Below are positions 29,790 to 37,335 of a DNA stretch of 64,000 nucleotides, piece after piece. Source of the DNA: Thermodesulfobacteriota bacterium (GTDB lineage Bacteria; Desulfobacterota_D; UBA1144; Nemesobacterales; Nemesobacteraceae); contig OZ241855.1 in the NCBI GenBank assembly GCA_965202785.1, forward strand, positions 123,660 to 187,659, given 5' to 3'. A program made the translations under genes and the position numbers. Under the pieces are notes generated by a model, which had not been told where the DNA came from, did not search any database, and saw only the letters and a list, made by a program, of their open reading frames with translations. Positions within the stretch are counted from its first letter, which is position 1. Each line of letters opens with the position of its first letter.

Positions 29790-29897
29790 ATCCAGGCAAT
29801 TCATCAGCTGAATTGATGTTGGGGAGGTCTGAGAGTTTCACTCACCCGAGTGGAACAGGATGGGACTATTAGGACTGAATGTTCCGTATCACCTTGA
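29790..29897 (-). pseudogene. decayed 5S rRNA-like sequence
   Basis: The reverse complement contains GUCCUAAUAGUCCCAUCCUGUUCCACUCGGGUGAGUGAAAC and ..CCUCCCCA..AAUUGCCUGGAU, which align to 5S loop B/C and helix I. About 24 nt of the helix IV/V region are missing, and the helix I strands no longer pair. Confidence 0.45.
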
Positions 29898-30096
29898 AAT
29901 AACTTAATTTTCACTTGACAAGCGTTTAAGCTGAGGGATAGAATTACTATTAGATTCTACGCAGTCTTCACAGCCTGCGAAGGTTACGATAATCTCAACT
30001 TAAAAGAATAATTTCCTAACAATATGATGGGGCAAGTGGCTAGTTGCAGGGTAATCACCTTAATTTTCACAGGCGAACGATCGAACGCTGACCGTC

Positions 30097-30265
30097 GGTG
30101 AGAATCTCCAATCCTCAAGACAAGTTTCACGGCCGATTAACACTCGCCAACTTAATCCCCCGCAAAACTTAGGTCCCGAACCTGTCAACCTCGTAATCCT
30201 TACGGAACCTTACTTTCCAGACTTGCTTCGCATGCTGCTCCCTGCCGCTTACGCATTATCTGGCC
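30097..30265 (-). pseudogene. diverged partial copy of the 23S rRNA 3' end (last ~145 nt plus the 3' processing flank)
   Basis: TTTCACGGCCGATTAACACTCGCCAACTTAATCCCCCGCAAAACTTAGGTCCCGAACCTGTCAACCTCGTAATCC aligns with 34396-34470 of the real 23S at about 70-75% identity by eye, in the same orientation. Confidence 0.6.
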
Positions 30266-30332
30266 CCAACCTGTTGTTCCTATTGAGAAAAAACATTAAG
30301 CATTTCCCTAAAAAATCGCAGGAGGATTTATT

Positions 30333-33540: not shown

Positions 33541-33991
33541 TTAAACTGGACGCTGAGTGAGCTCTTCTTGTTAACGGACGAGAAGTACTAACACCCGAGT
33601 GATGCTGCAACATCACTCACCCCACTTCTTGCCCAGCGTCCTTGATTTAGGAGCCGGTTGAATAGCCGGTGTCCTTGGCACCTCCCGTATCCTGTTCGTA
33701 AAAGCCCTAGCGAGCTTTCCGGTTCCTTATATACCGTAAGGATGCAGAACAAATGATAAATCAACCACTTTTACAATGGAGCGATAGCGGCAAAGATCCC
33801 CCAGATTTTCTTTCCGAGCTTGTCAATTCTTTTTTTCCTGACCGGAGAATTTTAGTCCGAACCTTTAGTTCTTTCGTCCAAGCTTTCCTTTAAAGCCGCA
33901 GTTCTCCATCTTCAATCTTGGTTTCAATTTTCGCGAACCTGTCCTCCGACATTTAAGGGAATTCTTAAAATTTCATTTTTGGGGCAACAAA

Positions 33992-34222
33992 ATGCATAGT
34001 TCCCTTTTATTCCTTATTCAAGATGGTGAACAGAATCTTGGCAAATCTAGCAGTACTATCTACAACCTTCCTTTTTTCCCTGCTTGCTTCGAGGGAATAA
34101 GCACCTACTACGTTGAGCGGAACCAGAAAGGATTGGAACTATTTGAAATGGAAAAACAAGTAGCGGAAACCAGAAGATGGGGTCAGCGGAAAGTCAGTTC
34201 TAAGTTCTATAATTTCAGTTAA
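33992..34222 (+). CDS. hypothetical 76-aa ORF (weak)
   Basis: An ORF only. It ends exactly at the right-hand 13-nt direct repeat. Confidence 0.15.
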   Translation: MHSSLLFLIQDGEQNLGKSSSTIYNLPFFPACFEGISTYYVERNQKGLELFEMEKQVAETRRWGQRKVSSKFYNFS

Positions 34223-34391
34223 AAAACATTAAGAACTTGTCTATAAACTACCATAACAAATTCTAACATGTCAAGAACTTTATGAAGAAAACATATTTAA
34301 AAGAAGCAACCCTCAAGTTGCAGAATCCCTGGCAACTGAATATAACGCTTGAGAAATCGTGTGTTTATATCGAGAATTTTCAAACCTCGCA

Positions 34392-37335
34392 GTAAGCCTC
34401 ACGGTCGGTTAGTACTCATCAGCTTAATCCCTCGCAGGACTTACACCCTGAGCCTATCAACCTTGTAATCTTCAAGGGACCTTAAGGAACTTACGTTCGG
34501 GAGATCTAATCTTGAGGCAGGTTTCCCGCTTAGATGCTTTCAGCGGTTATCCTTTCCGAGCATAGCTACCCAGCACTGCCGCTGGCGCGACAACTGGTAC
34601 ACTAGAGGCTCGTCCACTCAGGTCCTCTCGTACTATGAGCAGATCCTCTCAAATCTCCTTCGCCCGCTACAGATAGGGACCGAACTGTCTCACGACGTTC
34701 TAAACCCAGCTCGCGTACCGCTTTAATGGGCGAACAGCCCAACCCTTGGGACCTTCTCCAGCCCCAGGATGCGATGAGCCGACATCGAGGTACCAAACCT
34801 CCCCGTCGATGTGAACTCTTGGGGGAGATAAGTCTGTTATCCCCGGCGTACCTTTTATCCGTTGATCGATGGCCTTTCCACACAGAACCACCGGGTCACT
34901 AAGACCTGCTTTCGCACCTGCTCGACCTGTCAGTCTCACAGTCAAGCTCCCTTATGCCTTTGCACTCTGCGCTTGGTTTCCAATCAAGCTGAGGGAACCT
35001 TTGCACACCTCCGTTACCTTTTAGGAGGTGACCGCCCCAGTCAAACTACCCGCCTAACATTGTCCTTGATCCGGATAACGGACCTAAGTTAGAATTTCAG
35101 AACTACAAGGGTGGTATTTCACCATTGCCTCCACTCCGCCCTGAAGCGAAGTTTCACAGGCTCCCACCTATCCTACGCATGCAGCACCAAAACTCAATGC
35201 TAAGTTATAGTAAAGGTGCACGGGGTCTTTCCGTCCCGTAGCGGGTATCCGGCGTCTTCACCGGAACCACAATTTCGCTGAGTCTTTGGCCGAGACAGTG
35301 CGGCAATCGTTACTCCTTTCATGCAGGTCGGAACTTACCCGACAAGGAATTTCGCTACCTTAGGACCGTTATAGTTACGGCCGCCGTTTACCGGGGCTTC
35401 GGTTCTGAGCTTCTCCGAAGATAACCCATCCCCTTAACCGTCCGGCACTGGGCAGGAGTCAGACCCTATACGTCCACTTGCGTGTTTGCAGAGCCCTGTG
35501 TTTTTAGTAAACAGTCGTTACCGCCAATTTACTGAGACCCATTTCCGCTCCAGCCGCGAGGGCTTTCACGTACATATGGGCACCCCTTATTCCGAAGTTA
35601 CGGGGTTAATTTGCCGAGTTCCTTAGCCAAAGTTCTCTCACGCGCCTTAGTATTCTCAACTCACCCACGTGTGTCCGTTTCGGTACGGGCACTCGGTCGT
35701 CAACGTTTAGAAGCTTTTCTTGGAAGCATGGACTCAATCACTTTACGAGGCTATTGCCTCTCGTACTCACTTCTCAGAGTATTGAAAAGAGGTTTTACTT
35801 GTCTTTTCCTCCTACAAGCTTGAACCGGGATATCCAGCACCCGGATGACCTATCCTTCTCCGTCACTCCATCACTCAAACCGAATGGTACGGGAATATTA
35901 ACCCGTTTTCCATCGACTACGCCTTTCGGCCTCGCCTTAGGTCCCGACTTACCCTGGGAGGACGAGCCTTGCCCAGGAAACCTTGGGTTTACGGCGAGGT
36001 GGATTCTCACCACCTTTATCGCTACTCATGCCTGCATTCTCACTTCCCAACAGTCCAGGTTTCCTTACGGTAACCCTTCGACCCGTTGGGAACGCTCCCC
36101 TACCGCTGCGTACAAGTACGCAACCCGCGGCTTCGGCAACGAACTTAGCCCCGGTTCATTTTCGGCGCAAATTCGCATCGACCAGTGAGCTGTTACGCAC
36201 TCTTTAAAGGGTGGCTGCTTCTGGGCCTACCTACTGGCTGTCTATGCCAATTCACATCCTTTACCACTTAGTTCGTATTTAGGGGCCTTAGCCGGCGGTC
36301 TGGGCTGTTTCCCTTTCGCCGATGGGACTTATCTCCCACCGACTGACTCCTGTGCTAACCCAGCGGCATTCGGAGTTTGTCTGGGTTTGGTAGATCTTTC
36401 GACCCCCTAGTCCAATCAGTGCTCTACCTCCGCTAGTCATCACACAAGGCTATACCTAAATATATTTCGGGGAGAACCAGCTATCACGAATCTTGATTAG
36501 CCTTTCACTCCGATCCACAGCTCATCCGACAGGTTTTCACCCCTGACCGGTTCGGGCCTCCACAAAGGTTTTCTCTCTGCTTCACCCTGGCCATGGATAG
36601 ATCGATTCGCTTCGGGTCTATCCCCAGTGACTGGCGCCCTATTCAGACTCGCTTTCGCTACGACTACACCTATTCGGCTTAATCAGGCCACTGAAGATAA
36701 CTCGCAGGCTCATTAGGCAAAAGGCACGCGGTCAGGCATTTCCATAAATGGACATAGCCCTTCCACTGGTTACAAGCAGATGGTTTCAGATTCTATTTCA
36801 CTCCCCTCACTGGGGTTCTTTTCACCTTTCCCTCACGGTACTGGTTCACTATCGGTCAACGGCACGTATTTAGCCTTGGATGGTGGTCCACCCAGATTCC
36901 TCCAACATTCCACGTGTGCCGGAGTACTCGGGATCCCTCTAGGGCTCATCAAAGTTTCGCGTACAGGGCTATCACCTTCTGTGGCAAGACTTTCCAGACT
37001 ATTCTGCTACTTCTCAAAGTCCCATACTGAGGTCCCACAACCCCGAAGAGAAAATCTCTTCGGTTTGGGCTCTTCCCCGTTCGCTCGCCGCTACTAAGGG
37101 AATCTCGGTTGATTTCTTTTCCTGGGGGTACTGAGATGTTTCACTTCCCCCCGTTAGCTTGCCATCGCTATATATTCACAATGGCATGACCAAGGTTTGC
37201 TCGGTCAGGTTTTCCCATTCGGAAATCCTCGGATCAAAGCCTGTTAAGCGACTCCCCGAGGCTTATCGCAACTTACTACGTCCTTCATCGCCGTCCGTTG
37301 CCAAGGCATCCACCTTCTGCTCTACATATCTTATC
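34392..37335 (-). rRNA. rrl: 23S ribosomal RNA
   Basis: The reverse complement starts ..GAAGGTGGATGCCTTGGC and ends ..CCGTGAGGCTTACT. Conserved blocks such as GCTGAAAGCATCTAAGCGGGAAACC are present. The flanks form a long complementary processing stem. Confidence 0.95.

Follow-up and report, generated by a model that had tools for sequence, protein, structure and literature searches.

A Cre-like recombinase island that probably inserts at, and rebuilds, the 3′ end of the 23S rRNA gene in sponge-type Dadabacteria

Our analysis concerns a 64,000-nucleotide (nt) stretch of contig OZ241855.1 (positions 123,660 to 187,659), here called the window, which comes from a sponge-type Candidatus Dadabacteria and carries, at the 3′ end of its ribosomal RNA (rRNA) operon (rrn), an island of ~4.7 kb encoding a Cre-like tyrosine recombinase. 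Comparison of the island with related loci (numbered L001, L002 and so on) suggests that it belongs to a family that probably inserts at the 3′ end of the 23S rRNA gene and rebuilds that end, as islands at transfer RNA (tRNA) and transfer-messenger RNA (tmRNA) genes do. Insertion with regeneration at the 23S 3′ end is the part of this reading that we hold with good confidence; that the Cre-like enzyme does the joining we hold with less.

The limits of the island are set by an empty site. A scan seeded with RmuC retrieved locus L085, the only empty site found, which has an rrn 97.2% identical to the window's, no recombinase and no cargo, and in which RmuC, a Phd-like antitoxin gene, an intact 140-aa VapC/PIN toxin gene, a 125-nt trailer and the 23S 3′ end follow one another. 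Specifically, window 26343–29586 aligns with L085 10038–6837, window 34297–39400 aligns with L085 6403–1295, and the two aligned blocks are separated in L085 by only 434 nt, occupied by vapC. Because homology to L085 stops at 29586 and resumes at 34297, the island is placed at ~29590–34296 and comprises all the sequence that is absent from the empty site. To its left lie an RmuC gene and a Phd/YefM-like antitoxin gene (29272–29574, plus strand; PF02604, E 4e-4), the latter being the last intact host gene on this side and kept in L003, L006, L010–L012, L085 and L090. The adjoining vapC (PIN) toxin gene is reduced to a stump (29571–29714, plus strand) in which about the first 16–19 nt are native, host homology stopping at 29586–29589, and the remainder of the open reading frame (ORF) is island DNA; in the window, vapC has been replaced by the island.

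An earlier note on this DNA, made from the window alone, had proposed that the rrn operon received a recombinase-borne element at or near its 3′ end, and both the L085 empty site and the occupied sites in relatives support this. The same note had taken a 13-nt direct repeat, AAAAAACATTAAG, to bracket the inserted block. The repeat does have exactly two copies in the window, one in the recombinase leader (30288–30300, plus strand) and one at 34221–34233, yet it is no boundary of the island, whose ends, by the empty site, are ~29590 and 34296; the left copy is also present in L007, and the right copy is not conserved in L006. The description of the block as AT-richer holds for the island as a whole (48.3% GC, against 52% in the flanks) but not for the recombinase gene, which has 58.9% GC.

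The operon itself is intact, since the island begins right after the rrn terminator. It is read from the minus strand in the order 16S (39218–37680), tRNA-Ile, tRNA-Ala and 23S, with a functional 23S gene (34389–37336) that matches the Rfam large-subunit rRNA (LSU) model LSU_rRNA_bacteria over its full length with 2879.7 bits and is the target whose 3′ end is found duplicated. The 23S 3′ trailer (34297–34388, minus strand) is complementary to the 5′ leader (37330–37414), forming a processing stem, and a terminator-like hairpin (34306–34321) adjoins the right end of the island. The observation that the functional operon has no linked 5S is confirmed, as neither the Rfam gathering score nor a threshold of E ≤ 5 brought out a 5S anywhere in the 64 kb, and none was detected within the fetched flanks (≤10 kb on each side) of the related rrn-linked loci scanned. 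The stretch 29790–29897 (minus strand) had been read as a 5S remnant; a search of the 601 nt at 29720–30320 gave no match to 5S_rRNA (RF00001) at E ≤ 10, and its homologue in L005 gave none either. It is island-internal non-coding DNA that is unrecognisable as 5S and is 86–92% conserved among islands, close to the level of synonymous sites. The L085 empty site, with vapC and the 125-nt trailer only, likewise has no 5S at E ≤ 10, and a 5S gene was never present at this site. The proposal that an insertion uncoupled an old 23S-3′/5S segment, which later decayed, is not supported, given this 5S-free empty site.

The same layout recurs in relatives. The order RmuC–recombinase–23S–16S is present in 11 independent Dadabacteria assemblies (L001, L003, L006, L010–L014, L088, L090 and L091, the last on a short contig), three of them named as chromosome assemblies and a fourth a 1.56-Mb contig; L005 has RmuC and the recombinase and ends before the 23S. 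In all, at least 12 independent assemblies, chromosome-level ones among them, carry a recombinase between RmuC and the 23S end. Across the occupied loci, the distance from the recombinase stop codon to the 23S end ranges from 147 nt to ~4.7 kb. Ribosomal RNA operons are often mis-joined in metagenome-assembled genomes (MAGs), and the layout might on that ground be suspected of being an assembly chimera at the rRNA repeat. The window shares its order with independent assemblies from different samples (L001, L003, L006, L010–L014, L088 and L090), short-read and chromosome-level alike, which contradicts a chimeric contig join and leaves that explanation with a negligible probability.

The clearest occupied site is L006, in which the sequence from 8307 to 9306 is collinear with the empty site through RmuC, Phd, VapC, the trailer and 74 nt of the 23S gene, the island follows at 9307–13101, and a second trailer and a complete 23S gene come after it. 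The island is bounded by a 150-nt direct repeat of 92–94% identity, composed of the 74 nt of 23S and the trailer. The repeat copy at the live gene is 96% identical to L085, and the outer copy, which we term remnant B, has acquired changes. The remnant B junction in L006 reads ...CCTATCAACC followed by CATGAATTTAAG, and L006 and L001 share the junction TATCAACC followed by C(A/G)(T/C)GAATTTAAG. L090, which represents a separate lineage, has both a vapC/PIN gene and an L006-like 150-nt repeat, while remnant B persists in L001 as a vestige of 26 nt of 23S, with the same 26 nt at the same coordinates in L013. The window is without remnant B, which was lost together with vapC. The fragment displaced from the resident 23S is remnant B, and not the 23S-like fragment that lies inside the island of the window, which we term remnant A.

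Remnant A (30100–30212, minus strand) is located within the island, 121 nt upstream of the recombinase gene, and combines 17 nt of trailer with ~96 nt from the very end of a 23S (LSU ~2829–2925). It is a homologous 23S fragment and not a gene. The earlier note had described here a diverged copy of the 23S 3′ end reaching to 30265; the copy is real, but it ends at 30212. Alignment of 30100–30212 with 34372–34484 is ungapped, with 82 of 113 positions identical (73%; E 1e-16), and the Rfam model RF02541 places LSU 2829–2912 correctly on it, albeit with 9.1 bits against a 50-bit cutoff. The sequence from 30213 to 30300 has no significant similarity to 23S (P 0.09) and is homologous to the recombinase's own upstream region in L007, a locus free of rRNA genes. 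The 23S-like copy is oriented like the live operon and has non-coding DNA downstream of it, features that would suit the alternative that a second rrn operon, of which only these fragments are left, once stood here and that an island landed beside it. This alternative is contradicted by the empty site, where there is a single operon and no further element separates vapC from the 23S, and by the extent of the fragments, which cover only the last 74–113 nt plus trailer; in addition, the L006 fragment is the direct repeat that bounds the island, and the 64-kb window contains no further 16S, other 23S fragment or 5S at E ≤ 5. We consider a second operon very improbable.

Remnant A occupies the same place in the window, L001, L006, L013, L088 and L090, and is 89–96.5% conserved; between islands its identity is 93–96.5%, as compared with 85–93% for the third codon positions of the recombinase gene. 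In particular, between the window and L006, remnant A is 96.5% identical and the next 120 nt are 98.4% identical, whereas recombinase third positions are 85.5% identical and the outer parts of the island 80–83% identical. Among islands, no other non-coding part is as well conserved as remnant A and this adjoining 120-nt stretch. Because it is conserved above recombinase third codon positions, remnant A is not decaying freely, contrary to what had been supposed of the 23S copy. Over the 84 LSU-aligned nt, remnant A differs from the live 23S at 21 positions, 19 of them transitions. Among its base pairs, 3 are broken, 7 are changed on one side and 2 carry compensatory changes, and random placement of the same transition-rich changes gives a similar result (P ~0.25).

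The inner end of remnant A lies within 10 nt of the point at which, on the left, similarity to the L007 module stops. At this three-way breakpoint (30202–30212, from alignment and BLAST boundaries), the window, L007 and 23S sequences converge within 11 nt, defining a candidate crossover core. Specifically, the window reads ACGGAACCTTA followed by CTTTCC, L007 reads ACGGAAACTTG followed by CTTTCC, and the 23S reads AAGGGACCTTA followed by AGGAAC, with the break inside a CCTTAAGG palindrome; the candidate site in the 23S is TCTTCAAGGGACCTTAAGGAACTTACG, and the junction site in the island is CCTTACGGAACCTTACTTTCCAGAC. Since its end coincides with the module limit and its conservation is high, we conclude that remnant A records, as a fossil, an earlier joining of the recombinase module to a 23S end and is now maintained as part of the island.

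Upstream of remnant A is a sigma-70-like promoter, TTGACA-N18-TAGAAT (29915–29944, plus strand; 11 of 12 consensus positions matched), directed through remnant A to the recombinase gene. The promoter is conserved in L005 and throughout the group-1 islands (grouping given below); both hexamers are kept in L001, L006, L013 and L090, and L005 has TAAAAT. Transcription from this promoter would yield a recombinase mRNA with a leader of ~390 nt that is antisense to the 23S-like fragment. In L090, the non-coding left part of the island has a 42-nt tandem duplication (~9500–9545) immediately upstream of this promoter.

The recombinase (330 aa; 30333–31325, plus strand; PF00589) had been called Cre-like from its sequence, and profile comparison agrees: the match of the family profile to Cre is full-length (E 4e-26, query 37–334) and covers both domains, as compared with E 6e-8 for an XerC-like recombinase and 1.4e-4 for XerD. 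Residues R171, K199, H276, R279, W302 and Y311 are invariant in 25 sequences. The gene forms part of a recombinase module (30202–31416, plus strand), comprising a 131-nt leader, the gene and ~90 nt downstream, that is 86% shared with L007, where it stands in a context without rRNA, beside a TolC-like gene. A possible short direct repeat is present at the module ends, with ACGGAACCTTAC at 30202–30213 and ACGCAGCCTCGC at ~31402–31413 in the window, and a counterpart in L007 has AAAACGGAAACTTGC at 9874–9888 and AAAACGCAGTCTTCG at ~11065–11080.

Homologues of the recombinase with 94–96% identity are in Candidatus Dadabacteria MAGs, and the rRNA adjacency of the family is limited to Dadabacteria copies. 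This one site, always in the same orientation and in hosts whose flanks are alike, is taken by three deeply divergent lineages of the recombinase, with amino-acid identities to the window recombinase of 87–96% (group 1), 78% (L005) and ~71% (group 2). More distant relatives (42–55% identity), often in multiple copies, are found in MAGs labelled Poribacteria, Latescibacterota, Acidobacteriota, Entotheonella, Gammaproteobacteria and others; Poribacteria and Entotheonella are known sponge symbionts. Among ~70 loci of family members from other phyla, none has rRNA beside the recombinase, and few members have a nearby tRNA, none with a displaced tRNA fragment. Searches for carriage on phages and plasmids returned a single distant match in IMG/VR and, in PLSDB, only relatives of ≤38% identity.

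Elsewhere in Dadabacteria genomes, recombinases of 76–90% identity lie beside type IV secretion system genes, in contexts resembling integrative and conjugative elements (ICEs). Close relatives of the recombinase are located beside TraC, TraV, TrbI and TraG-like genes in L004 (1–9056 and 14296–21170) and L002 (17865–19214), and those in L004 also adjoin SIR2, DUF87 and reverse-transcriptase genes. One Latescibacterota MAG (L025, L033, L034, L039, L045 and L057) contains at least six copies of the family, three of them directly downstream of an internally repetitive gene of 6–8 kb; L033 and L045 are 98.5% identical over 2.5 kb that include the recombinase.

The recombinase and the host gene next to it have different histories, because their third-position identities are discordant: between L090 and L012, identity is 78% for RmuC and 48% for the recombinase, and between L090 and L006 it is 69% for RmuC and 88% for the recombinase. 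The rrn operons of the genomes are 96–99% identical, and the flanks 81–92%.

Group-2 islands (L003, L010–L012 and L014) differ in their ends. They have no 23S fragment, and their flanks are duplicated Phd/RmuC pieces of a foreign allele. L010 contains a second copy of RmuC-5′/Phd (6508–8130) with 76–77% identity. L003 contains, right of its recombinase, a 55-nt fragment of the Phd 3′ end (11085–11139) that is 87% identical to the window allele and unlike L003's own. These duplicates look like recombination scars anchored in rRNA genes. A Schlafen/AlbA_2–HATPase_c_4 gene is located upstream of the recombinase in group-2 islands, and L010, L011 and L012, which are ~91% identical through the recombinase, have 0, 2.3 or 3 kb of cargo between the recombinase stop codon and the trailer.

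The end structure of the group-2 islands, with 23S fragments absent and foreign-allele flanks present, counts against the insertion reading, and several other observations do so as well. The junctions differ, at LSU ~2829 for remnant A, ~2852 for remnant B and ~2757–2820 for the piece in L005, and this heterogeneity weighs against the proposal because a single site-specific enzyme should give one junction. No lox-type inverted repeat (13-8-13) is present at 30080–30340, 31300–31800 or 34180–34500, and the CCTTAAGG palindrome, where the 23S breaks, is the sole candidate site feature. L007 showed no second instance of the junction core, which would have marked the other end of that element, and the short repeat at the module ends is marginal (p ~0.1). 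The copy in the window cannot excise through its outer repeat, which is gone; the recombinase gene of L013 has a 1-nt deletion near codon 100 (near 10300) with early stops, reflecting either a decaying copy or an assembly error; and the empty site is a single example.

Much of this would be expected of a flexible island whose exchange depends on homologous recombination, or on homology-facilitated illegitimate recombination, with the rRNA genes as anchors. The recombinase would then be a passenger or serve another role, and one-sided crossovers would have left the duplicated pieces of 23S, trailer, Phd and RmuC as scars. Such exchange would account for the heterogeneous junctions, for the foreign-allele flank duplicates of group 2 (L010 and L003), for adjacent segments with discordant histories and for anchoring in an operon that is better conserved than its flanks, and it has a precedent in SAR11 hypervariable region 2 (HVR2; PMC2217521). 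It leaves unexplained why one recombinase family, in one orientation, is present at every occupied site in three very divergent lineages, why the limit of the L007 module coincides with the end of remnant A, and why remnant A is under constraint. We regard rRNA-anchored exchange as a possible but doubtful account of the island, and insertion with regeneration of the 23S 3′ end as the probable one.

The principal cargo of the island is a gene for an RTX/collagen-like lipoprotein of 463 aa (31782–33173, plus strand; PF00353, E 1.8e-33). The ORF encodes RTX repeats, six GXY triplets and a lipoprotein-type N-terminus, in agreement with its initial description as a collagen/RTX lipoprotein. Its N-terminal region is conserved and its body is unalignable between close relatives; alignment of the window with L001 and L013 reaches only to 31904–31942. 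An intrinsic terminator of the RTX gene (33224–33257, plus strand), with a 13-bp stem followed by T8, is the reason for weak Pxr/sX13 matches at this place. The right-end region (33277–34222) contains two small ORFs (33277–33540 and 33992–34222, plus strand), and the segment 34137–34296 is common to cargo-bearing islands of both recombinase lineages. The 16-mer AGGAGGATTTATTATG, comprising a Shine–Dalgarno sequence and ATG, has just two occurrences in the window, one where the recombinase gene starts (30320–30335) and one at the RTX start (31769–31784); it is present in L005 at the start of the cargo gene only and in L001, L006, L013 and L090 at the recombinase start only. In L007, three RTX paralogs lie downstream of the recombinase module (14260–19479), with a 70-nt inverted repeat of 93% identity across the 5′ ends of two oppositely oriented RTX copies.

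This association raises the alternative that the recombinase is not an integrase and acts as a resident switch, of the shufflon or invertible-gene type, that varies or controls the RTX surface-protein gene. The recombinase has RTX neighbours in the window, L006, L012, L088 and L007 (the last with its three paralogs and inverted repeat), the recombinase and RTX starts in the window share one 16-nt sequence, the RTX body is unalignable between genomes that are 92% identical elsewhere, and recombinases of the Latescibacterota MAG stand beside giant repetitive genes. Against a switch, the window has no inverted repeats around the RTX gene or its promoter, the 64 kb contain no silent cassettes and no paralogs of either the RTX gene or the recombinase, and an RTX gene is missing from L003, L011 and L014, which do have the recombinase. 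We consider the switch unlikely.

Elsewhere in the window (52043–52823, plus strand), two adjacent matches to the cspA thermoregulator fall below threshold, with 28 and 36 bits against a cutoff of 78.

We propose that insertion proceeds as follows. Incoming island DNA would bring along a 23S 3′ end complete with trailer and terminator, and joining within the last ~75–100 nt of the 23S would rebuild the operon and displace the resident 3′ end outward as a direct repeat. The constant part of the island is the Cre-like recombinase, reading toward the 23S end, and its usual cargo the fast-changing RTX lipoprotein gene. In this scheme, remnant B would be the displaced end that is contiguous with the host trailer and vapC, kept in L006 and L090, vestigial in L001 and L013 and deleted in the window. 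Remnant A would be an older displaced end that became joined to the 1.2-kb recombinase module on its left side; it would now move with the island as an internal piece, probably belonging to the recombinase site or leader. The comparisons show the insertion itself, the empty site, the repeats, the junctions and the discordance of recombinase lineages with the neighbouring host gene; we infer that the Cre-like recombinase may catalyse the joining, at a core within the CCTTAAGG palindrome of the 23S.

A stronger version, which we advance tentatively, is that the terminal helices of the 23S, with the CCTTAAGG palindrome ~97 nt from the 3′ end, are the chromosomal attachment site of a Cre-like integrase lineage dedicated to them, that each element would bring a spare 23S 3′ end, processing trailer and terminator, so that the operon is rebuilt on integration, and that selection would maintain the fossil 23S arm as part of the recombination site or as an antisense leader tying recombinase expression to the rRNA locus. 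If this is true, the islands would be a bacterial counterpart of the rDNA-specific mobile elements. Ribosomal RNA genes are the most conserved sequences of genomes, and a unique rRNA locus would make an ideal landing pad; to our knowledge, bacterial islands have been catalogued almost only at tRNA genes, tmRNA genes and a few protein genes. No description of a tyrosine-recombinase island with a duplicated 23S 3′ end was found in the literature searched, the coverage of which is incomplete and does not amount to proof of absence. Displaced 23S ends could mark similar islands elsewhere, and extra 23S-3′ pieces near rrn operons in MAGs need not indicate misassembly or a dead operon. The recombinase family occurs widely and in multiple copies among sponge symbionts from many phyla, and it may carry the exchange of surface-protein genes in the sponge microbiome.

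R1/R2 and Pokey are rDNA-specific mobile elements of eukaryotes. The insertion point of HeimM2, from Heimdallarchaeum, falls exactly between a tRNA gene and the single 16S gene (PMC8813620). The Dadabacteria islands resemble these elements in using a conserved rRNA locus as a safe and unique landing site, and differ from them in the enzyme, which in those elements is a reverse transcriptase/endonuclease, a transposase or a homing endonuclease, and in that those elements insert inside or beside a gene without supplying a replacement 3′ end. The resemblance to Cre/loxP of phage P1 lies in the enzyme, with a profile alignment over both domains (E 4e-26) and a shared R-K-H-R-W-Y set; the differences include low identity, the absence of a 13-8-13 lox-like site in the regions searched, and the setting, which for Cre is a plasmid prophage and here is chromosomal islands and ICE-like elements. 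SAR11 HVR2 is a 48-kb island of surface-property genes between 23S and 5S, with an integrase gene, and its authors regard the rRNA genes as sites of homologous recombination (PMC2217521). Like HVR2, the island of the window is a hypervariable island directly after the sole 23S gene with surface cargo and an integrase gene; unlike HVR2, which is bounded on its far side by 5S, the islands here are 2–5 kb long, have no linked 5S and have duplicated 23S ends.

The closest parallel in logic is provided by tRNA and tmRNA islands of the Islander type, which are defined by a regenerated gene and a displaced 3′ fragment that forms a direct repeat at the far end (PMC4383910). The likeness extends to position at the 3′ end of a structured-RNA gene (here marked by the 150-nt repeat of L006 and L090 and by remnant A), to a tyrosine recombinase gene at one end (here 121 nt from a displaced 23S fragment), to an empty site in relatives (here L085) and to the nested fragments left by successive events. 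The differences include the target, which here is not a tRNA or tmRNA gene but the 3′ end of the 23S gene, processing trailer and terminator included; the enzyme, which here is Cre-like, with Trp in place of the second His and no arm-binding domain seen, and not of the P4 or lambda type; and the crossover position, which here is not fixed, group-2 islands being without a target fragment. The island with displaced 23S ends is a new variant within the known logic of target-regenerating islands.

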